From contig NZ_CP064923.1 of the NCBI RefSeq assembly GCF_018336915.1, positions 4,380,001 to 4,412,000 on the forward strand: 32,000 bases of DNA, given 5' to 3'. Shown piece by piece: positions 2 to 20,282 of this stretch (position 1 is its first letter; each line of letters starts with the position of its first letter). A program made the translations under genes and the position numbers. The stretch is from Acaryochloris marina S15 (GTDB lineage Bacteria > Cyanobacteriota > Cyanobacteriia > Thermosynechococcales > Thermosynechococcaceae). The notes under the pieces were generated by a model, which saw only the letters and a list, made by a program, of their open reading frames with translations, searched no databases and was not told the origin of the DNA.

Positions 2-3000
2 TTTCAAGACTTAGATAGTATTCACATCATTTCTCATGGTAGCCAAGGAACAGTCCAACTAGGCAACACAGCTTTAACTCAAAACAACCTCAATACTTAC
101 ACCAATGACCTTGAAATCTGGGGCGAGGCTCTAGCAGACCATGGCGATCTATTGTTTTATGGCTGCAACATTAGCGCTGGTGATGACTTAACCTTCCTGC
201 AAGAGATCAGTACCATCACAGAATCAGATGTTGCTGCCTCAAATGACTTAACGGGTCAAGGGGGAGATTGGTTCTTAGAATCAAGCGTGGGATTGGTAGA
301 AACGACCGTAGCTCTGAGCAGTGCTGGCCAAGTCGCTTATCAAGGAACGCTAGCAACAATTGGTGAAAGTGGCAGGATAGACAATCTCAATCATCAATGG
401 ACTCAGATTACACTCCAAGAAACCTATACAAATCCCGTCGTCATTGCTGGACCACCCTCCTTTAATGGGCCTGATCCTTCAACCGTTCGGATCCGAAATG
501 TAGCCAATAACAGTTTCGAGATTCGCATTGACGAGTGGGAATACCTCGATGAACGACATACCACCGAGTCCCTGGGTTATCTGGTTGTAGAGGAAGGCAC
601 ACATACCCTAGCGGATGGTACCGTCCTCCAGGCTGGGAGCAGCCAGAGCAATAACAACTGGGATTCGATTGATTTTTCTACTGCATTCAATGACACGCCA
701 TTACTATTTGCCCAAACGACTAGCGAAAATGAAGCTGCCGCCGTGGCAGAGCGGCTCAGGAATGTTTCGACCACTGGCTTTGATTTAAGGTTGCAAGAGG
801 AAGAAGCTGCGGATCAAACCCATGCTGTGGAAGCAGTGGATTGGATTGCGATCGCACCCGGTAGCGGCACCTTTAGCAGTGTCCCCTTCATTGCCAATCA
901 AATCTCAAGTAATCATCAAGATTCCACTGCCAGCTTTGATAACGTCTTTAGCGGCAATGATATACCCGTATTTCTAGCTCAATCCAACACCAACAATGGT
1001 GGCGATCCTTTTTCGATTCGTTATCGGACCCTAGACACGACCGGCACCACCCTCTTTTTAGAAGAGGAGCAATCGAGGGAGAGGGAAACTCAGCACGTCT
1101 TTGAAGAGGTCGCTTATTTAGCACTGGGCACTGGATTGTTAGAGGTTCCAGACCCTGTTGTGGAGACCTTTTCCTTAGCTGATACTAATAATCCCATCCT
1201 GGTTAATGAATCGGCTGGCGTTGTCACCATCACAGCCATTCGTTCAGGATCAGCCCTAGCTCCAGCCACCCTTGAGTACACCACCAATGAAGTGGGTAGT
1301 TCAGACACAGCCTTAGCCGACGTAGATTTCATCACTCCCACCTTAAACGGGCGCAGCAATACAGGTGAAATTACTTTTGGCATTGGTGAAACGGTGAAGA
1401 CGTTTACGATCCCCATCATTGATGACGCCCTATTGGAGGGGAACGAAATCTTCTCCGTCGGCATCCAAAACCCCAGCAACGGTGGCTTGGGAGCACCCCG
1501 CACCACCCTGGTTACAATCATTGATGATGATGCAGCTTCCACGTTATCCGTCACGGATACTGCCATTAGCGTGGAAGAAGGAACCGCAACTGCCTCGATC
1601 ACGGTTCAACGGAGCGGCAATAGTTCTAGCACAGCATCCGTTGATTTCAGTACCCGTAACGGCACAGCAGTTGCTGGCGAAGACTATAGGGCAACATCCG
1701 GCACCCTAAACTTTGCCGTCGGCCAAACCACCCAAACCTTGACTATTCCTATCCTCAATGATGTCTTTGTCGAAGGAGACGAGACATTTTCCGTTACCTT
1801 AACTAACCCAAACGGTGGAGCTCTCGGGAATAACATTACCAATATCACCATTCTTGATAATGACTTGGCCTTGGGCAACCTCAATCGCACGACAGCAGTT
1901 TCAGGACTAACACAACCCACCACTCTCGATTGGACACCTGATGGTCGCTATCTGTTGGTTGCTCAAAAGGATGGAGTTGTTCAGGTCATTGATAATGGCG
2001 TGCTCCAATCCACCCCCTTAGTCGATCTATCCAGCCAGGTGAATGACACACGAGATCGCGGCTTACTAGGACTAGCCATTCATCCAGATTTTCCTAATTT
2101 ACCCTATGTCTATTTACTCTATACCTACGATCCACCCGAGACCATTGGCAATACAGGCTTAGCTGCTCCAGATGCCAATGGCAATCGCCCCTCGCGGATG
2201 GTGCGGCTCACGGTCGATCCCACCACAATGGTTGCAGATCCCAATAGCTTAGTTGTCTTAGCTGGCACCAACAGTACCTGGGCCAACACCAGTCAGCCCG
2301 ATAGCAACAGTACGGGCAATCTCTCTATCTCCCCCTCTGGGATTGTCAATGGCACCACCATTACCGCTCCCTCTAGCCAAATTGATCTCGGTAGCCAAGA
2401 TAATGACCCGAATCGTCCAGGGACTCAAAATCAAAATATTCGGGATTACCTAGCCACCGATAGTGAATCCCATTCCATTGGTGACTTAGAATTTGGCCCC
2501 GACGGGTATTTGTATCTCAGCAATGGAGACGGCACCTCCTATAACTTCGTCGATCCTCGTGGGGTTCGAGTCCAGGACATCAACAATCTTTCCGGTAAAG
2601 TGCTCCGCATCGATCCCCTCACAGGTCAAGGGATTTCCACCAATCCCTTCTTTAATGGTGATGCCAACAGCAATCAATCCAAAGTGTTTTATTCAGGACT
2701 CCGTAACCCTTACCGCTTTACCTTTGATCCAGTGACAAACTTACCTGTGATCGGTGATGTGGGCTGGACCCAGTGGGAAGAAATTAATACTGGAATCGCC
2801 GGTTCTAATTTTGGTTGGCCTTACCTAGAAGGCCCCAATCCAACCGGTGGCTATCAAGACTTGTCCCCAGCCATCTCCTTCTACAACAATGGAAATCGAA
2901 ATGATCCTGGAGATGCAGCAGCCATTTTTCCCCTCCTATCCCAGAGTCATGGAGCACCGGATAATGCCAACGCCATTACCGTCGGAGATTTTTACAATAG

Positions 3001-3880
3001 CAATACGCTAATGTTCGGGGATGTCAACAACGGCACCCTCTATGCAGCAACCTTCGATAATAATCGTCAAATTTCGAATGTTCAAGTCTTTGACTCTAAT
3101 ATTCCTTTTGTGGTGGACATGAAGATGGGGCCGGATGGTCGGCTCTATGGCGTAGATCTCGTCTCTGGAGAAATTCTGAAGTGGGAACCTGTTAATCTCA
3201 TCCAATCCCCACAGCCCAATTTATCGGCATCCTTCAATAATTTTGCTAACGTATCTTCCCTCAATCTCAATGGCAGTGCATCAGGAACCAATAGCCGACT
3301 CCGTTTAACACCTGCCAGTAGCAACCGGGCTGGGAGTGCCTTTTTCAATCAGGCCTTTCAGGTAGATGGTAATACTAGCTTCTCAAGCCAGTTCCAGTTC
3401 CAAATTACGGGAGGCCAGGGTACAACTGGTGCTGACGGTTTTAGCTTAGTACTGCAAAATAGCCCTACAGGGAGCAATGCCCTGGGCGGCATTGGTGGTG
3501 GCCTCGGCTATGGAGGCATAACCAATAGTATCGCCATCGAGTTTGATACATTCAATAACGGCGCCATGGAACTCAATAGCAACCATTTATCAATCTTGAG
3601 CAATGGTAGTACCAACAATCCGTTGGCCTCAGTTAATGCTCCCTTTGATCTAAATAGTGGCAATCCTCTCACCGCTTGGGTGAACTATAACGGCACAACC
3701 AATCTCTTACAGGTCTATTTATCCAACACTAATGTCCAACCTGCTGATGCAGTATTATCCACCAACATTGATCTCGCTGGGGCCTTGGGAAATCAAGCTT
3801 TTATCGGATTTACGGCCGGTACCGGCGGACTAGTAAACAGTCATGAGATTCTCAACTGGTCTTTTAACAGTATCGTCTAA
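2..3880 (+). CDS. Large modular secreted or surface protein, 5'-truncated by the window edge. Domain order: DUF4347-like segment, 3x uncharacterised ~75-aa module, 2x Calx-beta, PQQ-type glucose/sorbosone-dehydrogenase-like beta-propeller, C-terminal L-type (legume/ConA-like) lectin domain
   Basis: Frame 2 is open from nt 2 (FQDLDSIHIISHGSQGTVQLGNTAL...), upstream of the TTG at 152 used by the ORF track, so the true start lies outside the window. Calx-beta signatures: GEITFGIGETVKTFTIPIIDDALLEGNEIF and GEDYRATSGTLNFAVGQTTQTLTIPILNDVFVEGDETF. Propeller signatures: LDWTPDGRYLLVAQKDGVVQVID, DRGLLGLAIHPDF, GDLEFGPDGYLYLSNGDG, GLRNPYRFTFDP. Lectin signatures: GADGFSLVLQN, IAIEFDTFNN, AWVNYNG, AFIGFTAGTGG. 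Stop TAA at 3878-3880. Confidence 0.85.
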   Translation, partial: FQDLDSIHIISHGSQGTVQLGNTALTQNNLNTYTNDLEIWGEALADHGDLLFYGCNISAGDDLTFLQEISTITESDVAASNDLTGQGGDWFLESSVGLVETTVALSSAGQVAYQGTLATIGESGRIDNLNHQWTQITLQETYTNPVVIAGPPSFNGPDPSTVRIRNVANNSFEIRIDEWEYLDERHTTESLGYLVVEEGTHTLADGTVLQAGSSQSNNNWDSIDFSTAFNDTPLLFAQTTSENEAAAVAERLRNVSTTGFDLRLQEEEAADQTHAVEAVDWIAIAPGSGTFSSVPFIANQISSNHQDSTASFDNVFSGNDIPVFLAQSNTNNGGDPFSIRYRTLDTTGTTLFLEEEQSRERETQHVFEEVAYLALGTGLLEVPDPVVETFSLADTNNPILVNESAGVVTITAIRSGSALAPATLEYTTNEVGSSDTALADVDFITPTLNGRSNTGEITFGIGETVKTFTIPIIDDALLEGNEIFSVGIQNPSNGGLGAPRTTLVTIIDDDAASTLSVTDTAISVEEGTATASITVQRSGNSSSTASVDFSTRNGTAVAGEDYRATSGTLNFAVGQTTQTLTIPILNDVFVEGDETFSVTLTNPNGGALGNNITNITILDNDLALGNLNRTTAVSGLTQPTTLDWTPDGRYLLVAQKDGVVQVIDNGVLQSTPLVDLSSQVNDTRDRGLLGLAIHPDFPNLPYVYLLYTYDPPETIGNTGLAAPDANGNRPSRMVRLTVDPTTMVADPNSLVVLAGTNSTWANTSQPDSNSTGNLSISPSGIVNGTTITAPSSQIDLGSQDNDPNRPGTQNQNIRDYLATDSESHSIGDLEFGPDGYLYLSNGDGTSYNFVDPRGVRVQDINNLSGKVLRIDPLTGQGISTNPFFNGDANSNQSKVFYSGLRNPYRFTFDPVTNLPVIGDVGWTQWEEINTGIAGSNFGWPYLEGPNPTGGYQDLSPAISFYNNGNRNDPGDAAAIFPLLSQSHGAPDNANAITVGDFYNSNTLMFGDVNNGTLYAATFDNNRQISNVQVFDSNIPFVVDMKMGPDGRLYGVDLVSGEILKWEPVNLIQSPQPNLSASFNNFANVSSLNLNGSASGTNSRLRLTPASSNRAGSAFFNQAFQVDGNTSFSSQFQFQITGGQGTTGADGFSLVLQNSPTGSNALGGIGGGLGYGGITNSIAIEFDTFNNGAMELNSNHLSILSNGSTNNPLASVNAPFDLNSGNPLTAWVNYNGTTNLLQVYLSNTNVQPADAVLSTNIDLAGALGNQAFIGFTAGTGGLVNSHEILNWSFNSIV
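371..1132 (+). repeat. Three tandem copies of a diverged ~75-aa protein module inside the giant CDS (about 371-601, 644-859 and 899-1132)
   Basis: Shared pattern across copies: NPVVIAGPPSFNGPDPSTVRIRNVANNSFEIRIDEWEYLDERHTTESLGYLVVEEG; TPLLFAQTTSENEAAAVAERLRNVSTTGFDLRLQEEEAADQTHAVEAVDWIAIAPG; IPVFLAQSNTNNGGDPFSIRYRTLDTTGTTLFLEEEQSRERETQHVFEEVAYLALG. The repeat is visible at protein level only, and I cannot name the family. Confidence 0.6.
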
Positions 3881-3884
3881 CCTT

Positions 3885-5168
3885 CTAGTGATGGCGGCGT
3901 CGAGCAATGTCCTGAAAACACTGAATATATTGTGTATGCCCTTCAGGAAAAACCACATTCAGCGTCAATGGATCTGCTGTATCTCGATCGTCGCCAGGCC
4001 CCGTTACGACTCGATGGAGTGAGTTGGCCCCTGACTGAGAATCAGATATTCTCTCTAGCTGCAAAGCCTTACGGTTTTTGACCTCGCCGCCACTGCTGTC
4101 AACATAAATCACGATATTATGAGTATCAAATTCCTGACCCAGAGCTTGAATGAGGTGTAAGAAGTTGCGATCGCTTCCCCCTCGTTGAAACCGCAATTCT
4201 CCATTCTCTTCAACCGCCTTGCTGGTGACCGTATCACCCACCCCAATTAGGGTTGGCATGTGAACTGGGTCAAATTTCTCTTTGACTAAATCTACCAGGG
4301 CAGCATGAGATTGTGGAGCTTGACGAGCATTGAAGTCTGGGCCCAAAGGGTACTGTCCGGTTCGTTGGTGATAATAGCGATTCAAAATCGCCAACACCCC
4401 CGCCTCTTTAATGCCGCCTTGCAACATAAATTGAAAATCTGTTGTCCCCGCATCTTCAGCAGTCGCAGGTTGCAAAATTTCATTCCCCTGAGCATCTTTC
4501 CCCAGATTGGGTGCGTAATGCACAAAAAAAGATTTTCCCAGTCCCTGGACTTCTGCCTGTTGCAGTAGCTCTGCTGTCAGCACCTGCATCTCTTGCTGAA
4601 GCTGAGCATAAATCTCAATTTTGTCAGCCAGCAGATCATAAAAGACGTTTAAATTTGCCGTGGGTGAAACGGGATTGTCTAATACGGCTGCCTCGATACA
4701 GGCTGGAATGTTGGGATCATTCTCAGACTGACGTTGAAAAAACTGGTGCAAACGCTGACTAATTTGCTTAGGTACCGCCGCCAAAAAGTCCAATTCCTGG
4801 GAACTAACCCCTGGATGGGACACGGTACCAAATCGATCTTGCCATTGCACGCCTCCGGCTGCGAGACCGGGTAAGTAGAGGCCCTCTTGAGCCACTGTTC
4901 CCGCATCAAATGTCTTCTCAACAATGCGATTGACCCCGCGGTTGCCAATATGTTCGCCATTGGTGAGGACATAAAAATGTCCATCCAGGTGGCGAGCCGC
5001 TCGGACATACGCTGGATCAAGGGTTCGGGTCAGCGGATTTTTCACCAGCCCCATGCACACCCCATCTAAATCTTGAATGATTAACAGATTATTTTGCCGT
5101 TGGCAAAGGTCTATCAAAGCGCCGTGGTCTAGTGACCAGGTTTGCTTAGACAAAGATGGGTTAGTCAT
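3885..5168 (-). CDS. stpA: Glucosylglycerol-phosphate phosphatase (StpA/GgpP family, HAD-like)
   Basis: 427-aa ORF with ATG start. N-terminal LLIIQDLDGVCM (DxDGV nucleophile motif), then FYVLTNGEH, EGLYLPGLAAGGVQWQDRFG, TTDFQFMLQGGIKEAGVLAILNRYYHQRTGQYPLG and GVGDTVTS. These strings match my recollection of Synechocystis StpA nearly residue for residue. The size also fits (~420 aa). Confidence 0.75.
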   Translation of the reverse strand: MTNPSLSKQTWSLDHGALIDLCQRQNNLLIIQDLDGVCMGLVKNPLTRTLDPAYVRAARHLDGHFYVLTNGEHIGNRGVNRIVEKTFDAGTVAQEGLYLPGLAAGGVQWQDRFGTVSHPGVSSQELDFLAAVPKQISQRLHQFFQRQSENDPNIPACIEAAVLDNPVSPTANLNVFYDLLADKIEIYAQLQQEMQVLTAELLQQAEVQGLGKSFFVHYAPNLGKDAQGNEILQPATAEDAGTTDFQFMLQGGIKEAGVLAILNRYYHQRTGQYPLGPDFNARQAPQSHAALVDLVKEKFDPVHMPTLIGVGDTVTSKAVEENGELRFQRGGSDRNFLHLIQALGQEFDTHNIVIYVDSSGGEVKNRKALQLERISDSQSGANSLHRVVTGPGDDRDTADPLTLNVVFPEGHTQYIQCFQDIARRRHH

Positions 5169-5219
5169 GATGGGTGGATAGAGAGATTAAAACGGCTGAA
5201 AGCTTTTTGACTGTTGCCG

Positions 5220-6833
5220 TTAAGCCGTTTTAGCTGGAATTTGCTCCGGTTTGGGAGATTCTTCTGCAGGCTTGACCACAACCCGAGGATGATTTTCCAA
5301 ATGCACAGCTAACTGCGACTCAATTTCCTCCCGGACAATTTGTCGATATTCCATAAAGTGTTCAATAAAAGCAGATGCCGACAGATATCGCGTGAATACT
5401 TGTGGATTCTTTAGGAGAATCCGGAACAAGTTAATCCAGAATTTCCAGCGGGTCTCACGAACCACCCCTTGCCGCCAAGCCAGGGTAGACAAGGCTCGAA
5501 TATCAATCCAACTCACCTTTAGAGAACTTTTACCCGAACCCCCATATTTGGGACGGATCTTCATACTCATAAAATGACGGTAGGTCCGATCCAAATACTT
5601 CACCGGATCATAAATATTGCAGAAGGCTTCTACATATTCATTGGCAATTTCATCAATGGGACGAGTGGGAACATAGTTCATCAATGAGGTTTGATTGCCG
5701 GTTCCTTCTTGGCCTTGGATCAGGCGACCTTCTTTTTCTAGGCGATGCCACAGGGCGGTATTAGGCAAAGCTTGCAACATACTGAATAGGGCAATGGGAA
5801 TATTGGTCTTTTCGACGAAACGGGTAATGCGATCGCCCGCTCCTTTCTTTTCTCCATCAAAACCAATAATGAACCCGGCCATGATCCGTAGCCCTTTCTC
5901 AGACATGGTATCGATGGATTCGCTGAGGGAGTCCCGGGTATTCTGGAACTTCTTGGTTACCTTTAAGCTGTCTTCATCCGGGGTTTCAATCCCCAAGAAC
6001 ACACTATTAAAGTTGCACTCAATCATCAGATCCATCAACTCTTCATCCTGAGCTAAATCAACGGATGCCTCAGTTGCAAAGCTAAAGGGATAATCTTTCT
6101 CAGCCATCCAATCCCGCAGCTCGGTGAGCAGCAGTTTCACATTGCGCTTATTGCCAATGAAGTTGTCATCAACCATAAACACGTTGCCACGCCACCCCAG
6201 CTCACACAACCGATCAAGTTCACCGATCAGTTGCTCAGGAGTTTTGGTTCTAGGCTTGCGACCATAGAGAACAATAATGTCGCAAAATTCACATTGAAAC
6301 GGGCATCCCCGAGAAAACTGCACCGACATATTGTCGTAAGCAGGAAATTTCAGCAGGTCAAAGCGAGGAATGGGCGTATCGGTAACGGCAGGTTTTTCCG
6401 TCGCTCGGTAGATGCCGCTCTCATCTCCACGTTCTATGGCTTCAATGAACATGGGCAGGGTCAGTTCCCCTTCGTCCAAGATCAAGTAGTCCGCACCTAC
6501 GGCCTGCAAATCTTGAGGGACAGACGTGGCAAAAGGTCCACCCACCGCAACTTTCTTGCCGCGGCGATGGGACTCTTCCACGAGGCCCACCATATCTTCT
6601 TTCTGCACAATCATGCCGGATAGAATCACCATCTCAGCCCAGTCCCAGTCTGACTCAGGCACGGCTTCAATATTGCGGTCAATTAGCCGAAACTCCCATT
6701 CTTGGGGCAGAATTGCGGCTACCGTCACTAACCCCAGGGGTGGCAATAATGCTTTTTTGTCAACTAAGGACAAGGTTTTCTCAAATGACCAAAAACTTTT
6801 TGGAAAGAGGGGGTATATCAGTAAAACTCTCAT
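5220..6833 (-). CDS. B12-binding-domain radical SAM protein (BchE-like orphan class with a DUF4070-type C-terminal region), function unknown
   Basis: 537-aa ORF with ATG start and AGGAG about 15 nt upstream. N-terminal Rossmann-like B12-binding region (MRVLLIYPLFP...LGLVTVAAILP...VILSGMIVQ...KVAVGGPFAT). Radical SAM cluster motif FSRGCPFQCEFCDI (CxxxCxxC). Long C-terminal extension. Confidence 0.8.
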   Translation of the reverse strand: MRVLLIYPLFPKSFWSFEKTLSLVDKKALLPPLGLVTVAAILPQEWEFRLIDRNIEAVPESDWDWAEMVILSGMIVQKEDMVGLVEESHRRGKKVAVGGPFATSVPQDLQAVGADYLILDEGELTLPMFIEAIERGDESGIYRATEKPAVTDTPIPRFDLLKFPAYDNMSVQFSRGCPFQCEFCDIIVLYGRKPRTKTPEQLIGELDRLCELGWRGNVFMVDDNFIGNKRNVKLLLTELRDWMAEKDYPFSFATEASVDLAQDEELMDLMIECNFNSVFLGIETPDEDSLKVTKKFQNTRDSLSESIDTMSEKGLRIMAGFIIGFDGEKKGAGDRITRFVEKTNIPIALFSMLQALPNTALWHRLEKEGRLIQGQEGTGNQTSLMNYVPTRPIDEIANEYVEAFCNIYDPVKYLDRTYRHFMSMKIRPKYGGSGKSSLKVSWIDIRALSTLAWRQGVVRETRWKFWINLFRILLKNPQVFTRYLSASAFIEHFMEYRQIVREEIESQLAVHLENHPRVVVKPAEESPKPEQIPAKTA

Positions 6834-6983
6834 AGAGTGGTCACATCTCCTAAGTCCAAATACAAAGAATCTTAACGCTTATTTGTCTTTTGTGCTGAGA
6901 GTAGATTTAACCTTAGGCATTGACTAAATTTAATCCTAATTTCTCAGGTTTGTCGGGTGCATTGTCAATTTTGTCAACTAGGG

Positions 6984-7535
6984 TTATGCCTTTAAACCCA
7001 ACTGTCTACGCACCCATGTCGCCCCCATAAATAGTAACGGTGTCACAATTGCTCCTGTTAGCACCAAATGGAGAGGAAAGTGAAAATAGAAAAACCATAG
7101 GATCAGCACTCCATAGGTGGAATCCATATGATCAATGACATAGAAAAGTTTGTTGTTTTCATCCCCAGGGGGAATCTCCAACCGTCGTTTCACGAAGGAA
7201 TTGGGTAACTCGGATAGGTTAAAAATAAAGCCAACTAACAATCCATATTCGAGAAAATTAAAGTTGGAGAGTTGAATCTGCAGACCTGAGTTTGAGAAAA
7301 ATTGAGCCTCAAAGACCTGCAGAAAAAAGGTACTAACAACACAGGTTAATGGTAAGCTAATCAATCCTCTCCAGCGTTTATTAGCGCCAAACCATTGGGT
7401 CTGGATCGGTATATTTACAAGTTCAAAAGGTTTCGTCTTCCAAAGAAACGCCTCTAAAACTCCAGCTAGGAATAGCCCAACCCCAAGCCATAAAATATTT
7501 AAAGCATCTTGGGCAAAGTGAGTCCAGAAAAGCAT
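6984..7535 (-). CDS. CarS-family (CDP-archaeol synthase-like, DUF46) polytopic membrane protein. Putative CTP-dependent lipid-phosphate cytidylyltransferase or CTP-dependent lipid kinase
   Basis: 183 aa and strongly hydrophobic with several predicted TM segments. It contains the two motifs I associate with the CarS family: FGANKRWRG (compare GDGKTWRG) and NSFVKRRLEIPPGD...VIDHMDS (compare GSFIKRRxGxxRG...DQLD). ATG start at 7533-7535 (minus strand). Confidence 0.65.
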   Translation of the reverse strand: MLFWTHFAQDALNILWLGVGLFLAGVLEAFLWKTKPFELVNIPIQTQWFGANKRWRGLISLPLTCVVSTFFLQVFEAQFFSNSGLQIQLSNFNFLEYGLLVGFIFNLSELPNSFVKRRLEIPPGDENNKLFYVIDHMDSTYGVLILWFFYFHFPLHLVLTGAIVTPLLFMGATWVRRQLGLKA

Positions 7536-8938
7536 TGTTTTCGCAACAGATTAAATTGGATATTGTCTTCGAGGAACAACTCTTTTTCGTCAGCGACTCC
7601 GAACCAGCCGTTGACAATATTCAGGCCAGGGGTTGGTTGACGACCTCTAGTTTGTCCTGGTTCCATGCTGGCCTGCGGCAAACGTTAGCCTTTGATGATG
7701 TAGTCGGCGTCAGGCCCACTGATAAGCAATATCCTCAAGGGCTCGTCGGATTTATTCTATGTGCCTATCCCGCTCCTAGGACTGTACCCCAACGCCGACA
7801 GTTACGGGAATATGAGTTTGTCTGTGCCACAGAGCAGATGCGATCTCAGTGGATTAACGTCATTCGCCAAGCGTTACAGAGCGACCCCATTCAACCCCAG
7901 CAAGCCGTCAAGCCCCGTCACCTCAAAGTCTTAGTCAATCCCAAGGGTGGACGACGACAGGCCAAACAAGTCTTTCAATCAACTCAGGCCATTTTAGAAG
8001 ATGCCCATTGCCAGGTGAGCATTTTGGAAACCCAGGGGGGAGATCGGACCATCCAGGCTGTCCGGGACTTCGACCTATCGACAATAGATGGATTTATTGT
8101 TGTTGGGGGTGATGGCACCGTTTTTGAATTGATCAATGGACTGATGACCCATGCTGATGCGGAGGTTGCGATCGCAAAACCCATCGGCATCATCCCAGCT
8201 GGTACAGGCAACGGTCTAGGAAAGACCATTCTCGACCTATCCCAAGAAACCTACGATCCGAGTAATGCCGCCTTTATCATCGCCAAAGGCAAGTACCAAC
8301 CCATTAACCTGGGTGTCGTCAAACAGGATGGCAAACAGTACTACAGCATCCTCTCCCTCGCCTGGGCCTTGATTAGTGATATCGACATTAAGTCCAATAA
8401 GCTCCGTTTCCTCAAATTCCTCGGGTCCTTGCGCAGTGATGTCTATGCATTTCTCAGCATCTTGGCCCTCCGTAGTTATCAAGGCCGGATTTCCTTTTTG
8501 CCAGCCCCAGACTGGCAGCCTAGCCCTGATGCCCCTCAGCAAACGCCCCTATCCGAGCCGCAGCCAGTAGAAATAGAGAATTCTCCATCCTCAGATTGGC
8601 AAGTTCTCGAAGGAGAATTTATTGCCCTTTGGGTGATGAACGTCGCTTGGGCCACCCATAGCGTTTTGGCAGCTCCTCATGCCCGATTAGCAGATGGCTA
8701 TATGGATGTCTTAATCATTCGTAAAGGAATTACCCGCTGGCGTTTACTGACAGCATTTCTGAAGATTGCCACCGGAGAACATATCCTCATTCCAGAGATG
8801 GAATACTACAAGGTGCGCTGTCTCCACCTAGAACCTCTGAGCTCTGAAGGCTTACTTGCCGTTGACGGAGAACAAATCAATTACCGCTCCGTCGAAATGA
8901 ATGTTTTGGCAAACCATGCTCAAGTTTTTTGCCGTTAA
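7535..8938 (+). CDS. Lipid kinase of the DAGK_cat superfamily with sphingosine/LCB-kinase-type C1-C5 motifs and an N-terminal ~110-aa extension
   Basis: C1 LKVLVNPKGGRRQAKQVF; C2 IVVGGDGTVFELINGL; C3 PIGIIPAGTGNGLGKTI; C4 SLAWALISDIDIKSNKLRFLKFLGSLRSD; ADGYMDVLIIRKGITRWRLLTAFLKIATGEH; C5 LLAVDGEQI. The start is uncertain. The track start at 7535 is a TTG that overlaps the start codon of the divergent gene, the next in-frame TTG is at 7556, and there is no ATG until far downstream. Confidence 0.75.
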   Translation: MFSQQIKLDIVFEEQLFFVSDSEPAVDNIQARGWLTTSSLSWFHAGLRQTLAFDDVVGVRPTDKQYPQGLVGFILCAYPAPRTVPQRRQLREYEFVCATEQMRSQWINVIRQALQSDPIQPQQAVKPRHLKVLVNPKGGRRQAKQVFQSTQAILEDAHCQVSILETQGGDRTIQAVRDFDLSTIDGFIVVGGDGTVFELINGLMTHADAEVAIAKPIGIIPAGTGNGLGKTILDLSQETYDPSNAAFIIAKGKYQPINLGVVKQDGKQYYSILSLAWALISDIDIKSNKLRFLKFLGSLRSDVYAFLSILALRSYQGRISFLPAPDWQPSPDAPQQTPLSEPQPVEIENSPSSDWQVLEGEFIALWVMNVAWATHSVLAAPHARLADGYMDVLIIRKGITRWRLLTAFLKIATGEHILIPEMEYYKVRCLHLEPLSSEGLLAVDGEQINYRSVEMNVLANHAQVFCR

Positions 8939-9045
8939 TCTGAGGGCTAACGAGCCGATGTATACTCTTCCCCAACTGCCCGAGCGGAGCTAGGGCTGAG
9001 AACATCCCTGCATACCGGAGATTCAGCGGAGTCATTATCCTCAAT

Positions 9046-11286
9046 ATGAAGTCTATTACCCTATCGACTGGGGTTTTCGTTGCCATCATGGGTTTGAGTC
9101 TGCCAACCCATGCCGAAACCGCCCCCTTCTCAGATCCACTCCTAACCCCTACTTCATGTGACGAATGCCATCTCAACCCAGCAGGTCTCAAAAGTACCAA
9201 CTTCAGTTTTAGCCAAAGTCCGACAGCCCAGATCAAGCAGACCTCCAGCAGCTTGAATCTATCCAGTTCAAGCCAGAGCACTCGCCAAGTTAGTTTTCAA
9301 TCGACTGCTGCTCAACCGGAAAATCTTGATCCAGCTAGTCCTTCAAATGCGAGTTCAGACACTACAGCCACCGGAACACTATCCTCACCTCCTCCCCATG
9401 CAAAACAATCATTGCCGCCTCATCCAACGACCTTATTTCCACAGCAGGCACTCATCTCTCAGGCCACAACTCACCAGGATGTCACCCCTCCTCTCCCCAT
9501 CTCCACTCGTGCAGCAGATCTAGCCCAGGTCGATTCAGTTCCTCCAGCCGTAGCTGAAACCGAAAGTAACACTGAAGATAGCGAAGAAACGCCAGCGCCT
9601 CGTTTTAGCCCCTTAGCTAACCAACAATTTCAGCAACCCACCGCGATTCACCTTCCCAAAGGGGCAGTGGCCCTTAGCCTTTATAATCGACTCTTCTTTT
9701 TACCTGGTACTGAAGCCGCTAGCGGTACAGCAGCCTACCCCAACTTTGGAGTCACTTGGGGTGTCACCGATAGTACAGAGCTGGATTTAACCCTGCAGGT
9801 CGTTGATACGGGCACTCCAGACCGCCTGGGTCCCTTTGGTGTAGTCAGACGGGTCAACAACCGAGATTTAACGGTATCCGTCAAACAACGCCTGTGGGAT
9901 AACCCTGACAATACTTTGGCCTTCAGCGGTTCCTTTTCATTGGCAGTGCCCCTGACCAAACGCACCTTTGAATTTAATCCAGGAAGGATTGAGCAAGAGA
10001 ATAAAAGCTTAATTCCAGCACTCCAGTTTCCTTTTACTGCCACCGTTAACGAGCGTTGGCAATTTACCCTTTCACCCACCATTGCCTTCTTCCCCGATAG
10101 CAATGCCGTCTTTATCCCCCGTCCACCCCTCGCAAATCCAGGTTCCTTTGGCACAACCTTGGGGTTAAGTGGGGCAATTTCCTATCAAGTCCACCCTCGG
10201 ATCACCCTCTGGGGTGATGCGTTTGTGCCCTTTACCGGCAACAACAGTTTTAATCGGGATACAGGTCTACCCGCCAAATCTATTGCTTACAATGCGGGGC
10301 TACGGTATTTCCTCAATCCCAGCTTGGGGCTTGATATCTTTGCTACCAATACCTTTGGCAGCAAAGGGCCATTGGCCCTGACTGCCGATCGGGACTTAAC
10401 GGCTTTGGGGTTGAGAGTCATTTCTTTACCCAGCCTCTTTGCCTCCAACCGCCGGATTGCCGATAGCTTCAATCGTGAGCAGGATGGCCAAGATTCACCC
10501 AACACAACCGATGGCCTGGCCTTTTTTGATGGCGGGACGGTGCCCAGTCAGCGTTTTCTCTTCCATTTACAAGGCGGTGGTCAAGGAATTCAGACGGCCC
10601 TACGTTATGGGATCGTCAAAGACTTAGAACTCTTTGCCTATTTGGATTACATCTCTGGTGAGGTGGACGAATCAGAGCAAGGCTTTGGTGTAAAACTACG
10701 ATTGCTTAACCAGGAAGAAGCAGCGCCTTTCACAGCCAGTGCCGCAGTAACAGTGGGACTCACCAACAATATCTTCGACAACTTTGACAACAACAACCGT
10801 AACGGTCAATTCCGACTAGGGGCCCCCAAAGACTTCCCTCTGATCTTTCAGACCGACAGTCCCGAAGGCAGGCGCTTTGTGGTGACCCTATCCTTACCCT
10901 TGCATTACAAAGTTAATGATCAACTAGCCTTTTGGTTTACCCCCACGGCAGGATTTGTCCAGCGAGATGGTCTAGAGCTGGGAGGCTTTAACGTAGGCGG
11001 CTCCGTTGAGGTCATTCAAGACTTCAGCCTGGTTGGCGAATTGGGAGCAAATTTCTTGGGTGAGGGTAATGCCTTTATCGGCAATACCCTAGCCGATCGC
11101 ATCCCCTGGTCCGTGGCCGTGCGCTGGAATCCCAGAAAAATCATAGGGGGTGATGAATCGGGCAAGAACCAACCCAATGTTGAATTCTTTGTCACCAATC
11201 GTGTGGGCTCATCTACCTGGCATCAGCTCAGAGTCCGTGATCAAAATGAAATCACAGTTGGTGCAGGCATTTCTATTCCTTTTTAA
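9046..11286 (+). CDS. Putative outer-membrane protein: signal peptide, ~170-aa S/T/P-rich low-complexity region, then two tandem beta-barrel-like modules
   Basis: ATG start. N-terminus MKSITLSTGVFVAIMGLSLPTHA-ET looks like a Sec signal peptide. The rest shows alternating hydrophobic beta-strand patterning, and the C-terminus GAGISIPF ends in Phe, the typical OMP terminal signature. The first module ends similarly (LGLRVISLPSLF). I recognise no named family. Confidence 0.55.
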   Translation: MKSITLSTGVFVAIMGLSLPTHAETAPFSDPLLTPTSCDECHLNPAGLKSTNFSFSQSPTAQIKQTSSSLNLSSSSQSTRQVSFQSTAAQPENLDPASPSNASSDTTATGTLSSPPPHAKQSLPPHPTTLFPQQALISQATTHQDVTPPLPISTRAADLAQVDSVPPAVAETESNTEDSEETPAPRFSPLANQQFQQPTAIHLPKGAVALSLYNRLFFLPGTEAASGTAAYPNFGVTWGVTDSTELDLTLQVVDTGTPDRLGPFGVVRRVNNRDLTVSVKQRLWDNPDNTLAFSGSFSLAVPLTKRTFEFNPGRIEQENKSLIPALQFPFTATVNERWQFTLSPTIAFFPDSNAVFIPRPPLANPGSFGTTLGLSGAISYQVHPRITLWGDAFVPFTGNNSFNRDTGLPAKSIAYNAGLRYFLNPSLGLDIFATNTFGSKGPLALTADRDLTALGLRVISLPSLFASNRRIADSFNREQDGQDSPNTTDGLAFFDGGTVPSQRFLFHLQGGGQGIQTALRYGIVKDLELFAYLDYISGEVDESEQGFGVKLRLLNQEEAAPFTASAAVTVGLTNNIFDNFDNNNRNGQFRLGAPKDFPLIFQTDSPEGRRFVVTLSLPLHYKVNDQLAFWFTPTAGFVQRDGLELGGFNVGGSVEVIQDFSLVGELGANFLGEGNAFIGNTLADRIPWSVAVRWNPRKIIGGDESGKNQPNVEFFVTNRVGSSTWHQLRVRDQNEITVGAGISIPF

Positions 11287-11382
11287 GGGGTTAATGCCAG
11301 GTTCTTGACCATAGCGGTGATTTTGATTTTTCGTCTATAGGCATGTTAGGGTCGCTGTTGCCTGAGTTTACGGGAAATAGCT

Positions 11383-12033
11383 ATGCCCAACCCTTCCACA
11401 CCTGTTCAGGATTCTGCCGAAATTCATGACGAGACACCTATCACAGTCCCCCTGTCTCCGCTAGATAGAATGGTGCAGTTTTTCACGATTAAGCTAGCCA
11501 GATCTTTAGCTCGCTTTACCTGGATTACCCCCAATCGAGTCACCTGGGTATCTGCAGGGATTGGTGGTCCCCTCACAGGATGGCTGATTATTCAGGAGCA
11601 GCTTTGGCTCGCAACTGCATTAGTGGTGGTGAGTGGTCTTATGGATGGATTGGATGGGGACATTGCCCGGGAGCGCAATCTCACCTCAATCGAAGGCGGT
11701 ATTTTAGACAGCGTTTTAGATCGCTACGTCGATTTTTTCCTGATTGCAGCGCTAATTTTGGTGAACCCCACTGAATATTTACTGGTGGGATTATTCGCCC
11801 TGCTGGGGACCACCATGGTTCCCTACATTCGGGCCAGAAGTGAGGTCGCAGGCAAAAGTTCTATTGCCAGTATTGGGAGCCGAGCGACTCGAATCGTATT
11901 GATTATTTTGGGATTGCTCACCCAACAGCTCTTTATTTTGCTAATTGCATTAGCCGTTATTTCCAATATTGCCGCAGTTCACCGCTTTTGGTTCTCGCTT
12001 ATCCCCGTCAAGGACCAGCCAACTCCTTCTTAA
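11383..12033 (+). CDS. CDP-alcohol phosphatidyltransferase family protein (AIPS/DIPPS-like small membrane enzyme), substrate unknown
   Basis: Complete family motif DGx2ARx8Gx3Dx3D is present in MDGLDGDIARERNLTSIEGGILDSVLDRYVD. ITPNRVT lies upstream. 216 aa with multiple TM segments and an ATG start. Confidence 0.85.
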   Translation: MPNPSTPVQDSAEIHDETPITVPLSPLDRMVQFFTIKLARSLARFTWITPNRVTWVSAGIGGPLTGWLIIQEQLWLATALVVVSGLMDGLDGDIARERNLTSIEGGILDSVLDRYVDFFLIAALILVNPTEYLLVGLFALLGTTMVPYIRARSEVAGKSSIASIGSRATRIVLIILGLLTQQLFILLIALAVISNIAAVHRFWFSLIPVKDQPTPS

Positions 12034-12125
12034 ACTGCCTGTTCTTAAGAGATACAAACTCGCTATAGTGATTACCTAATGCATGCTTTGCTTCCATGCT
12101 GTCAGGTAGTCAGAAGGCAGACCCA

Positions 12126-13001
12126 ATGGCGAATACAGAAATACGAGAACGCTTACCGGAATGGCTACGCCGCCCAATTGGCAAGGCAAGTGAGCTGTCC
12201 ACCGTGCAGCAAATTGTCAAACGCCATAATATCCACACCATTTGTGAAGAGGGCCGATGTCCCAATCGGGGCGAATGCTATGCCCAAAAGACAGCCACAT
12301 TTTTATTAATGGGGCCAGTCTGTACCAGAGCCTGTTCGTTTTGCCAGGTTGATAAGGGACATGCGCCCCAACCCTTAGATGAGCAAGAACCACAAAAGGT
12401 TGCTGATTCTGTGCAGCTACTAGGGCTGAAGTATGTGGTGCTGACCTCCGTTGCCAGAGATGATTTGCCAGATCAAGGGGCAGGATGGTTCGCCGCGACC
12501 ATGGCGGCAATTCGGGCAGTTAGCCCCAATACCGATATTGAAGTTTTAACCCCTGATTTTCGGGGCGATCGCAATCTGATCGCCACCGTCGTTGACGCCC
12601 ACCCCGTTTGCTATAACCACAATCTGGAAACGGTTCGGCGTCTCCAAGGGCCCGTGCGACGAGGGGCAAAATATGAGCGATCGCTAAAGGTTCTGGCCAC
12701 CGTTAAGGAACTTGCACCTAAAAATGATGTCATACCTATTATTGCCACCAAATCAGGTCTGATGCTGGGATTGGGCGAAACAGAAGCTGAAATCATTGAA
12801 ACAATGGAAGACTTAAGGGCAGTGGGATGCGATCGCATCACTCTGGGCCAATATATGCGCCCGTCCCTCAACCATCTCCCGGTCCAGAAATACTGGCACC
12901 CCGAGGAGTTTGATCGCCTAGATGAGATTGCTCGCTCTCTCGGGTTTAGTCACGTTCGTTCTGGTCCTTTAGTCAGAAGTTCATATCATGCTGGAGAGTA
13001 A
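12126..13001 (+). CDS. lipA: Lipoyl synthase
   Basis: Auxiliary cluster motif [12 protein letters not shown] (Cx4Cx5C) and radical SAM motif CTRACSFC. C-terminal RSSYHA. I prefer the ATG at 12126 ([17 protein letters not shown]) over the ATG at 12096 used by the ORF track, but either is possible. Confidence 0.9.
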
Positions 13002-13213
13002 GACCTTGAACTTCACAAAAACTTCATACTAGATCTTGATTACTAGCCTAGTAAATATTCACCACTTCAGACCTAATCATGCTTCCACAGATAGGTTAAA
13101 CATTATTTGCTAAATAGAGGGAAATTGAGTCTAACCATGCTTTCACCTTTTAAAAAGCAAGATTACAATTCTGGGCTCATCAAAATAGTGCTGCGAATTA
13201 AATCAGGTGTGCA

Positions 13214-13750
13214 ATGTTGAAAAAATATCATCCTGGCCAAAGACGCTTTAAAACCCTCTGGTGTGGATTGGTACTGAGTACAACGTTCTTCATCAGCAGT
13301 TGTGCCCCAACGCAAGACAAACCTCAAATTCCCTTTAAATCAGTTACAACCCTTGGAAGACTATCTGTCGGTACAACCTTACCTGCCAGAAGCGCCATGA
13401 TTGCCCATCAAAACGGTCGGAATAAACTGGGGAACCGTAAATTTCTAGTTCATCTCTTACATTCAGAACTGCCACCCGTCTGCACCAATGATGAATGTGG
13501 TGTTTTTGGTCCCATTGCAAATATCAAAGGGGCAGATCTCTATGGAGGAGGCGACTTGAAGTTAGCTGATCAGTTCTACGGTATTTTCTCCACTGAGAAC
13601 GAAGCCTTTCGGCAAGAATCACAAAATTATGGGGTTTTGATTATTTCAGATCAACAAGCCAAAATTCGGGCTATTTACCAACATGTAGACCTACCGGATG
13701 TAGAAACTATCCTGCAAGACTCGGAGGCTATTTTCGCCCAGGCTGACTGA
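13214..13750 (+). CDS. Hypothetical lipoprotein, possibly thioredoxin-fold (TlpA/peroxiredoxin-like)
   Basis: Lipobox-like FFISSC after a basic-hydrophobic leader. Internal FLVHLLHSELPPVCTNDECG (Cx4C) and a late VLIISDQQAKIRAIY strand resemble redoxin-fold proteins. The assignment is weak. Confidence 0.45.
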   Translation: MLKKYHPGQRRFKTLWCGLVLSTTFFISSCAPTQDKPQIPFKSVTTLGRLSVGTTLPARSAMIAHQNGRNKLGNRKFLVHLLHSELPPVCTNDECGVFGPIANIKGADLYGGGDLKLADQFYGIFSTENEAFRQESQNYGVLIISDQQAKIRAIYQHVDLPDVETILQDSEAIFAQAD

Positions 13751-19529: not shown

Positions 19530-20282
19530 ATGAAACACATTTTGAAGCAAATCGGGGGTGCGATCGCATTTTATAGCTGTATTCCACTCCCCCCGAACTG
19601 GCCCTTAGAATTTGAACGAATTGCGCGTTGGGCCCCTTGGGTCGGTTTGCTCTTAGGAGTGGGCATCGGTACCATCGACTATAGTCTTGCCTTAGGGCAG
19701 ATGCCCGTCCTAACTCGCAGTGCTCTAGTCGTCGCCCTCTGGATAGGCATCACCGGCGGCCTCCATCTGGATGGCGTCATGGATACCGCTGATGGCCTCG
19801 CTGTCATGGAGCCCGAACGGCGTCTCGCCGTCATGTCCGATAGTCGCACTGGGGCCTTTGGGGCCATGGCTGGCACCCTAGTGATTCTCCTCAAGGTCTG
19901 CGCCTTAAGTAATCTCTCGATTCCTCACCTGCCCGCCCTAGTGACGACCCTAGTCTGGGGACGAATCGCTCAGGTTATGGCCATTGCCGCCTACCCTTAT
20001 CTCAAACCCGAGGGTAACAATGCCTTCCACACCAATGCTTTTCAAGGCATGGGGGATCTATGGCCTAGCGCAATGGGTTTATTCATCATCACCGTCTGCC
20101 AATATTACGGGTTTCCCTTTGCATGGCAATCCGTTTTGGGGGGTATCCTAATGGGAATCAGCCTATCCCTCGGCATCAGCTACTGGTTTTATTACCAATT
20201 TAAAGGGATGACTGGTGATGTTTACGGTGCCATCGTAGAATGGACAGAAGCATTAGTCCTATGCTGCTTGACACTGATTTAA
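19530..20282 (+). CDS. cobS: Adenosylcobinamide-GDP ribazoletransferase (cobalamin synthase)
   Basis: 250-aa polytopic membrane protein with the family signature GGLHLDGVMDTADG and an ATG start. Confidence 0.85.
   Translation: MKHILKQIGGAIAFYSCIPLPPNWPLEFERIARWAPWVGLLLGVGIGTIDYSLALGQMPVLTRSALVVALWIGITGGLHLDGVMDTADGLAVMEPERRLAVMSDSRTGAFGAMAGTLVILLKVCALSNLSIPHLPALVTTLVWGRIAQVMAIAAYPYLKPEGNNAFHTNAFQGMGDLWPSAMGLFIITVCQYYGFPFAWQSVLGGILMGISLSLGISYWFYYQFKGMTGDVYGAIVEWTEALVLCCLTLI

Follow-up and report, generated by a model that had tools for sequence, protein, structure and literature searches.

Which of the closely packed genes in a divergently transcribed region of Acaryochloris marina belong together, and what would they make? 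The window analyzed here is a 32-kb stretch of the A. marina S15 genome (contig NZ_CP064923.1, positions 4,380,001 to 4,412,000; 32,000 nucleotides), in which a first-pass annotation had read six open reading frames (ORFs), arranged in two divergent sets, as one lipid-activation and head-group pathway analogous to the DgkA-CdsA-PgsA-Pgp route from diacylglycerol (DAG) to phosphatidylglycerol (PG). Three of the six, encoding a lipid kinase (KIN), a CarS-like protein, and a class I CDP-alcohol phosphotransferase (CDPOH), constitute a conserved, apparently undescribed cyanobacterial module; a function in lipid head-group attachment is the best explanation of this module as a whole, to which we give a probability of roughly 0.55 on the sequence evidence. 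The six ORFs, their strands, the intergenic gaps (51 and 150 nt in the minus-strand set, 107 and 96 nt in the plus-strand set), and the domain families were confirmed as first described, with the two gene sets meeting at nt 7535. The start codons of the KIN and CarS-like genes lie 0-20 nt apart, depending on the KIN start that is chosen. The genes of the region are as follows:

6984-7535, minus strand: CarS-like protein, putative CTP:lipid-phosphate cytidylyltransferase, 183 aa; core gene
7556-8938 (public gene call, 460 aa) or from a TTG at 7535 (467 aa), plus strand: KIN, SphK/CERK-type (sphingosine kinase/ceramide kinase) lipid kinase; core gene
11383-12033, plus strand: CDPOH, class I CDP-alcohol phosphotransferase of the AIPS/PIPS/DIPPS type (archaetidylinositol-phosphate, phosphatidylinositol-phosphate, and di-myo-inositol-phosphate-phosphate synthases), 216 aa; core gene
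3885-5168, minus strand: StpA/GgpP phosphatase, 427 aa; neighbor, outside the module
5220-6833, minus strand: HpnP-like B12-binding radical SAM protein (rSAM), 537 aa; possible accessory, probably cotranscribed with the CarS-like gene
9046-11286, plus strand: putative outer-membrane protein (OMP) between KIN and CDPOH, 746 aa; not supported as part of the module
12096-13001, plus strand: LipA, 62 nt after CDPOH on the same strand; left out by the first-pass annotation

Genomic Coupling of KIN, CarS-like, and CDPOH

Gene-neighborhood analysis was performed on 54 species-level genome loci encoding the CarS-like subfamily (6 from Acaryochloris and 48 others, designated here by L numbers), onto which the window proteins were mapped and in which all neighboring ORFs were clustered. 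KIN was the immediate divergent neighbor of CarS-like in 16 of the 54 loci, namely in all six from Acaryochloris and in 10 of the 48 others. These ten pairs are found in Leptolyngbyaceae, Oscillatoria (two loci), Lyngbya, Limnospira, Oscillatoriales, Pseudanabaenales, Jaaginema, Xenococcaceae, and an uncultured cyanobacterium, and their flanks are otherwise unrelated. A CDP-alcohol transferase stands beside the pair in six of the ten loci: the window-type CDPOH adjoins KIN in L035 and L045 (Limnospira) and lies near it in L025, and a second type of CDP-alcohol transferase, also matching the AIPS model best, occurs in L011, L049, and L050. Additionally, a metagenomic contig (L059/L060) holds a compact cassette in which CarS-like faces KIN, CDPOH, an inositol-3-phosphate synthase of the archaeal/bacterial type (MIPS), and a short-chain dehydrogenase/reductase (SDR) in a row. 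Where the genes are unlinked (Pleurocapsales), named genomes with a CarS-like gene (LEGE 10410, CCALA 161, W. agarophytonicola, and three metagenome-assembled genomes [MAGs]) were found to encode KIN homologs of 40-46% identity as well. The full six-gene arrangement was observed in Acaryochloris only. KIN, CarS-like, and CDPOH adjoin one another far more often than chance would allow, and the adjacency of StpA and OMP is confined to the genus; hence, the neighborhood conservation of CarS-like homologs that the first-pass annotation had named as a check extends to KIN and the CDP-alcohol transferase, is weak for rSAM, and does not include StpA or OMP.

A natural lesion was found in L055, an Acaryochloris MAG (Acaryochloris sp. 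IP29b_bin.137, approximately positions 6900-10550), in which KIN has lost aa ~126-366, comprising the catalytic domain, the CarS-like gene carries a frameshift, and no more than a 23-aa remnant of CDPOH is left. In the same locus OMP (83% identity), rSAM (90%), and LipA (92%) are intact and full length.

A search with a CarS-like hidden Markov model (HMM) against 1.84 billion representatives retrieved 6 clusters at E<=1e-30 and 788 relatives at E<=1e-3, which delimits the cyanobacterial subfamily as a narrow one. Ten proteins from the next circle of relatives were checked against Pfam, and five of them carry a CDP-OH_P_transf domain. The fusions join CarS-like and CDP-OH_P_transf in both orders, and also occur as AMP-binding+CDP-OH_P_transf+CarS-like proteins of ~930-947 aa, one of them from a Desulfobacterales MAG (fusion-bearing relatives, those joined to PlsC-type acyltransferases included: P0351, P0356, P0359, P0378, P0391, P0395, and P0404). 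These architectures suggest a wider bacterial system that would extend beyond cyanobacteria. Taking into account the neighborhoods, the fusions, and the triple lesion of L055, we regard KIN, CarS-like, and CDPOH as one functional unit, and OMP and rSAM as independent of it, since both are intact where the core is broken.

Other neighbors in these regions (CarB, FolD, TsaD, Usp, SMC-like, and PIN genes) were dismissed as housekeeping. At L025:6091-8202, the CDP-alcohol transferase and KIN are separated by an insertion of two near-identical ORFs of ~310 aa that have the look of a mobile element. In Arthrospira platensis PCC 7345, CarS-like is present on two scaffolds (L039 and L041) with very large flanking ORFs and no kinase nearby, and the trio of CDPOH, kinase, and CarS-like is found in the related locus L045 from Limnospira.

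KIN Resembles Eukaryotic Sphingosine Kinase

The Pfam domains DAGK_cat (PF00781, 87.8 bits) and YegS_C (PF19279, 41.2 bits) were detected in KIN. Its best sequence match in the PDB was human SphK1 (E 2e-49, 172 bits), compared with 52 bits for DgkB (E 4.5e-13 for DgkB/YegS). The same ranking was obtained when the AlphaFold2 (AF2) model (pLDDT 79) was compared with known folds, where SphK1 was matched with an E-value of 2e-29, TMt 0.8, and 31% identity, and DgkB/YegS with ~1e-18 and 21%. Across 25 homologs the GGDG motif (G184, G185, D186, and G187), N128 and P129 of the NPxxG motif, and an Asp equivalent to SphK1 D178 were invariant; this last residue aligns with the SphK1 Asp that we take to contact the amino alcohol of sphingosine. 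The N-terminal domain (aa 1-107, pLDDT ~90) is modeled as seven strands and a C-terminal helix and looks like a pleckstrin homology (PH) domain. An N-terminal PH-domain architecture is known from ceramide kinase, whose CERK_C model scored 18.5 bits on KIN (cut-off 33.5). Judged by these profiles and structural matches, KIN is a SphK/CERK-type lipid kinase that is nearer to eukaryotic SphK than to bacterial DgkB/YegS.

CarS-like Protein as a Putative CTP Transferase

The CarS-like protein, which is 95% identical to a protein of A. marina MBIC11017, matched PF01864 over aa 47-182 with 41.2 bits (cut-off 22). Two motifs, NSFxKRRLxIPPG and DHxDS, are invariant in its alignment, and we presume that the arrangement NSFxKRR...PPG...DHxDS corresponds to the CdsA/CarS signature. 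The AF2 model (pLDDT 80) comprises five long helices, and in the fold search CdsA (4Q2E) ranked below ApCarS (5GUF). Genes for GGGPS or DGGGPS were absent from the conserved neighbors in the 54 loci. Because the protein fails the CarS equivalog cut-off, shows no detectable sequence similarity to ApCarS, and matches its fold weakly, we place it in a bacterial branch of its own within the CarS-like superfamily and do not class it as a CDP-archaeol synthase; its CTP-transferase activity is putative, as predicted from profile and model.

CDPOH and the Nature of the Head Group

CDPOH, which is 100% identical to an A. marina protein at NCBI, carries the CDP-OH_P_transf domain (PF01066), and its best NCBIfam model was the archaetidylinositol-phosphate synthase; with NF052561 (PIPSynBT1523) it scored 58 bits. 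In the PDB it matched DIPPS 4MND best, along with AF2299 and the Mtb and Rs PIPS enzymes. The reading of the transferase as AIPS/DIPPS-like, like that of the kinase as SphK-like, was therefore borne out by the Pfam, NCBIfam, and PDB matches. The class I signature, D88xxD91G92xxA95R96...G105xxxD109xxxD113, is complete and invariant in 19 family members. An RxxR motif (R167/R170) aligns with Mtb R152/R155, with R170 invariant, and the equally invariant R201 in the last helix aligns with an Arg of AF2299 and is presumably equivalent to Mtb R195. It has been reported that two PIPS arginines (Mtb R155 and R195) bind the phosphate of inositol phosphate and that eukaryotic phosphatidylinositol (PI) synthases are without them (Clarke et al., PMC4634129). 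The extra C-terminal helices that characterize lipid-acceptor enzymes (PMC4634129) are absent from the 216-aa CDPOH.

The gene neighborhoods of relatives point in the same direction. MIPS genes occur near CarS-like in 22 of the 48 loci outside Acaryochloris, mostly in Pleurocapsales, plus L023 and L050, and in L059/L060 MIPS directly follows a window-type CDPOH. The Pleurocapsales cluster also contains GT4 and WecG-type glycosyltransferases, a GNAT protein, and a stand-alone fatty-acyl-AMP ligase (FAAL), which is the commonest neighbor (29 of 48 loci). In L061/L062:6423-11946, a CDPOH relative of 43% identity is accompanied by MIPS, a 538-aa protein without assigned family, GDPD, an NTP-transferase, and a HAD protein, a cluster that looks like a CDP-inositol-type route. 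Because of the MIPS neighbors, the ranking of AIPS, PIPS, and DIPPS as best families, and the invariant arginines, inositol phosphate is the best-supported head group, probably in place of glycerol phosphate, and the acceptor of CDPOH is likely myo-inositol 1-phosphate. These observations, together with a score of 16.9 bits against the PgsA model TIGR00560 (cut-off 109.1), make the proposed analogy with the DAG-to-PG route probably wrong.

Three further observations concern this set of genes. In Oscillatoria (L023:1941-4604) and Jaaginema (L050), a Stealth-family phosphotransferase and a LicD-family protein lie between GT4 and SDR, a sign that the product may be decorated further with phospho-sugars or phosphocholine. 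In searches of the PLSDB plasmids by tblastn with MIPS and alpha-oxoamine synthase queries, no cyanobacterial-type MIPS and no Acaryochloris record was among the top matches. The Sphingomonas parapaucimobilis plasmid NZ_CP155750 has a MIPS gene adjoining a CDP-alcohol transferase.

Candidate Lipid Substrates

Alpha-oxoamine synthase (AOS), either stand-alone or within a FAAL-ACP-AOS fusion, was found in the clusters of L011, L023, L025, L038, and L050, which also encode an acyl carrier protein (ACP), an acyl-CoA-dehydrogenase-like protein, a desaturase, and a fatty-acid hydroxylase. A conserved SDR is present in L023, L025, L038, L050, and L051, with an ortholog of 57-63% identity in L059/L060, and its best match among 445 SDRs of the PDB was, narrowly, the 3-ketodihydrosphingosine reductase (KDSR) TSC10. 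The combination of a SphK-like kinase with AOS and a KDSR-like SDR in the clusters of relatives is the reason why the lipid is plausibly a sphingoid base or ceramide; for Acaryochloris itself this is a prediction. Cyanobacteria have CdsA for PG synthesis, and since CdsA already activates phosphatidic acid (PA), a dedicated kinase and CTP transferase would make little sense unless the lipid phosphate were one other than PA. The Cds of Synechocystis is cited in PMC7018664. The KEGG-module supplement of PMC8949462 names just a sphingosine-kinase block, and the complex sphingolipids known from cyanobacteria amount to just two compounds (PMC8895605). On the Planktothrix agardhii plasmid NZ_LR882937, an AOS domain of 60% identity lies inside a gene annotated as type I polyketide synthase.

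StpA and OMP as Neighbors and rSAM as a Possible Accessory

StpA scored 526.8 bits with the equivalog model TIGR02399 (cut-off 365.5) and 607 bits over its full length with Salt_tol_Pase (PF09506). It was adjacent in four of the six Acaryochloris loci and in none of the 48 others, and ggpP and ggpS have been reported for osmolyte synthesis in all 37 A. marina strains studied (PMC8949462). No ggpS gene lies in the window. By score, StpA is the glucosylglycerol-phosphate phosphatase GgpP, an osmolyte enzyme outside the module. Its assignment as the head-group phosphatase of the pathway was accordingly abandoned, and a role as a PIP-type phosphatase was rejected on the same two grounds, the equivalog-level score and the lack of conservation with the module.

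The rSAM protein has the architecture B12-binding + Radical_SAM + DUF4070 in Pfam, as in HpnP; its NCBIfam matches were all far below cut-off, and it is 41% identical to the HpnP of A. thomasi over 236 aa. HpnP-type radical SAM enzymes of this architecture methylate lipids, and an uncharacterized HpnP-like paralog exists in many cyanobacteria (PMC10697835). The supplement of the same study lists A. marina MBIC11017 and S15 with squalene-hopene cyclase (SHC) and with HpnP as 'ND'; on this ground, and given the 41% identity to the HpnP of the clade, its identification as HpnP proper was rejected. Of the 48 loci outside Acaryochloris, just 2, from Waterburya (L026) and Pseudanabaenales (L049), have an rSAM ortholog within ~3 kb of CarS-like, which speaks against the pathway membership it had been given. 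The rSAM is best described as an HpnP-like protein that is loosely tied to the module, as an accessory at best; a role as lipid methylase is plausible for it.

OMP produced no match in Pfam, NCBIfam, or PDB sequence searches. It has a signal-peptide-like N-terminus, a variable S/T/P/Q-rich linker of ~180 aa, and two conserved halves, both of them beta-rich and ending in Phe. The similarity of these 'tandem' halves is weak (hhalign E 0.015, probability 3%, collinear), and no internal repeat was found by BLAST of the protein against itself. Present in six of six Acaryochloris loci and in none of the 48 others, OMP does not hold the place in the module that the first-pass annotation had offered it.

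Proposed Pathway and Alternative Explanations

All evidence being genomic, every enzymatic step of the following scheme, like the identity of the lipid, is a prediction. The SphK/CERK-like KIN would phosphorylate the primary hydroxyl of a membrane lipid alcohol; the CarS-like protein would then move CMP from CTP onto the lipid phosphate, yielding a CDP-lipid distinct from the CdsA product; and the AIPS/PIPS-like CDPOH would pass the lipid phosphate to myo-inositol 1-phosphate. In relatives, a phosphatase and subsequently GT4/WecG glycosyltransferases would finish an inositol-phosphoryl glycolipid. The lipid would most likely be a sphingoid base or ceramide, with 'CDP-ceramide' as intermediate, although DAG or another lipid alcohol may take its place. 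The sequence of kinase, CDP-lipid, and head-group transfer that had been proposed for the region is thereby retained for KIN, CarS-like, and CDPOH, on the strength of neighborhoods, fusions, and the triple lesion, and given up for StpA and OMP. In its most specific form, the scheme has cyanobacteria including A. marina making CDP-ceramide or CDP-sphingoid intermediates in an archaeal style on the way to inositol-phosphoryl (glyco)sphingolipids, bypassing PI; this form is tentative, and we put its chances clearly below even.

Several observations weigh against the three-gene scheme or its sphingoid form. The three genes are dispersed in many genomes, with unrelated neighbors around the KIN and CDPOH homologs in L056-L058, L063, and L065-L070, and L055 is a MAG, in which an assembly error could conceivably have produced the lesion. 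CDPOH falls below the equivalog cut-offs of both AIPS (116.5 bits, cut-off 180) and PIPS (73.1 bits, cut-off 170). The CarS-like protein scored 35.4 bits with the CarS equivalog NF003114 (cut-off 148), its profile retrieved no PDB sequence, ApCarS included, even at E<=10, and its top and sole credible fold match, ApCarS 5GUF, is weak (probability 0.94, TM 0.47/0.53, E 0.34). The AOS sequences are below the cut-offs of every Spt and BioF model, and the lead of TSC10 over other SDRs is just 3 bits. No MIPS, AOS, KDSR-like SDR, FAAL, or GT4 gene was found in the window or within 10 kb on either side of the Acaryochloris loci. Fusions to PlsC-type acyltransferases, seen in some of the distant CarS-like relatives, hint at glycerolipid substrates. 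Finally, in four species belonging to different orders, a gene for the GGPP synthase CrtE, whose score exceeds the equivalog cut-off, is found at a distance of 2-8 kb from CarS-like (L014:16663-17589, L035:12262-13209, L045:12242-13189, and L050:3957-4907), which may reflect ancestral synteny or hint at an isoprenoid link.

If the product were ordinary DAG-based PI, KIN would act as a DAG kinase, the CarS-like protein would serve as an alternative CDP-DAG synthase, CDPOH would be a PIP synthase, and the PI might then be mannosylated as in the actinobacterial phosphatidylinositol mannosides (PIMs). The DAGK_cat domain of KIN, the resemblance of CDPOH to PIPS, the GT4 and MIPS neighbors (as in PIM synthesis), the PlsC-type fusions, and the lack of sphingoid-base genes near the Acaryochloris and most Pleurocapsales loci are all consistent with such a route. 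We nevertheless consider it unlikely, given that CdsA is already present for PG, so that a PIP synthase alone would suffice, that KIN sides with SphK1 over DgkB in both sequence (172 vs. 52 bits) and fold (E 2e-29 vs. 1e-18), and that AOS and KDSR-like genes lie inside the clusters of 5-7 loci. The same enzyme logic could also serve another lipid alcohol, such as an isoprenoid or ether lipid, a hopanoid-derived polyol, or a long-chain diol or fatty alcohol. The absence of GGGP/DGGGP synthase-like genes from the conserved neighbors, the retention in KIN of the SphK1-type Asp (with the role we presume for it), and the housekeeping nature of CrtE make this quite improbable, even though CrtE lies close by in the four loci named above, HpnP-like rSAM genes accompany CarS-like in Acaryochloris, L026, and L049, and FAAL, a neighbor in 29 of 48 loci, also forms a fusion with the CDP-OH/CarS-like pair in Desulfobacterales. 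Also in favor of such a substrate, the characterized CarS enzymes use an isoprenoid ether lipid (PMC7018664).

There is very little chance, in our estimation, that all six genes form the complete DgkA-CdsA-PgsA-Pgp analog of the first-pass annotation, with StpA as phosphatase, rSAM as modifier of the lipid tail, and OMP as localizer. StpA and OMP are absent from 48 of 48 loci outside Acaryochloris, OMP and rSAM survive in L055 after loss of the core, StpA passes the equivalog cut-off of an osmolyte enzyme in a species that uses ggpP and ggpS, and CDPOH is not PgsA-like (17 vs. 109 bits); on the other side stand the tight packing of the genes (gaps of 51-150 nt), the need of such a pathway for a phosphatase, which StpA could meet as an enzyme that dephosphorylates a glycerol-3-P moiety, and the lipid methylation performed by HpnP-type enzymes (PMC10697835). 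It is equally hard to credit that the adjacency is accidental and the genes share no function, or that CDPOH makes a soluble DIPPS-like inositol-phosphodiester osmolyte apart from KIN and CarS-like. That DIP-phosphate synthase 4MND is its best PDB match, that its 43%-identical relative sits with an NTP-transferase and a HAD protein in the CDP-inositol-type cluster, that the osmolyte gene stpA is nearby, and that the three genes are dispersed in many genomes would agree with this. However, KIN/CarS-like adjacency in more than ten unrelated contexts, the fusions, and the triple lesion are very unlikely to have arisen by chance, and no cytosolic inositol-phosphate cytidylyltransferase was seen beside window-type CDPOH genes.

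Comparison with Known Systems

The three-gene scheme shares with the archaeal archaetidylinositol route (CarS + AIPS + MIPS) a CarS-family enzyme, an AIPS-like transferase bearing the inositol-phosphate arginines, and, in relatives, a MIPS neighbor. It differs in its bacterial host, in a CarS-like protein that fails the equivalog cut-off, and in the absence of GGGPS/DGGGPS; the lipid phosphate would apparently come from a SphK-like kinase instead of glycerol-1-P prenylation, and the module's neighbors in relatives are FAAL, AOS, and KDSR-like genes, not those of isoprenoid ether lipids. Actinobacterial PI/PIM synthesis (CdsA, PgsA1, a phosphatase, and PimA) is similar in the inositol 1-phosphate acceptor, the CDP-alcohol phosphotransferase signature, the RxxR motif, the Arg of TM6, and the GT4 genes near the module in relatives, and in neither system has the phosphatase step been identified (PMC4634129). 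Unlike there, the donor here would probably not be a CdsA-made CDP-DAG, given the dedicated kinase and CarS-like protein, and the PIPS model yields 73 bits (cut-off 170).

Inositol phosphorylceramide (IPC) synthesis in eukaryotes and Bacteroides resembles the scheme in its possible inositol-phosphoryl sphingolipid product and in the use of MIPS and a PIPS-like enzyme, and it differs in that the scheme would have the lipid itself activated as a CDP derivative; genes of the IPC-synthase type were not seen. In the account of Heaver and colleagues from 2022, as with fungal AUR1, PI reportedly donates the inositol phosphate and the ceramide is not activated. The Caulobacter ceramide phosphoglycerate pathway begins with the ceramide kinase CpgB, a DAGK_cat-type enzyme that makes sphingolipid 1-phosphate. 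A kinase of this type as the first head-group step would be common to both systems and the head group differs; we know of no CTP activation or CDP-alcohol transferase in the Caulobacter pathway. With the DgkA-CdsA-PgsA-Pgp route to PG, the likeness is confined to the formal chemistry of kinase, cytidylyltransferase, CDP-alcohol transferase, and phosphatase, since the two have no enzyme family in common, inositol phosphate probably takes the place of glycerol-3-P as head group, and StpA is by score an osmolyte enzyme.

The logic of a CDP-activated lipid used by a CDP-alcohol transferase is classical; the combination of enzymes and the probable substrate are new. In full-text literature searches, no mention of CDP-ceramide, CDP-sphingosine, or related terms, or of such a pathway, was found, and no paper tying CarS-like proteins to bacterial sphingolipids. 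If the scheme is correct, it would add a third kind of CDP-activated membrane lipid to CDP-DAG and CDP-archaeol, and it would provide a route to inositol-phosphoryl lipids, possibly sphingolipids, that bypasses phosphatidylinositol. It would also give a function to the bacterial CarS-like proteins, now called 'CDP-archaeol synthase' by homology alone, and the genetic basis of complex cyanobacterial sphingolipids would become testable. The five-gene cassette of L059 is suited to heterologous expression, and the L055 lineage may offer a natural knock-out for comparative lipidomics.

Flanking Genes of the Window

Domain scans of the rest of the window detected RimO, a DEAD helicase, a PBP, CobS, RNase E/G, and others, and no lipid-related genes. 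A promoter/terminator scan of 3700-13300 gave fewer matches than shuffled sequence and was uninformative on operon structure. CobS (cobalamin-5-phosphate synthase; 19530-20282, plus strand) lies 12.7 kb from the gene of the B12-binding rSAM, a proximity that is probably coincidental. The plus-strand ORF at 152-3880 (1242 aa; 1348 aa in the public call) combines Calx-beta, glucose/sorbosone dehydrogenase-like, and legume-lectin domains in a protein that is probably secreted; the ORF adjoins stpA, an arrangement that is kept in Acaryochloris.

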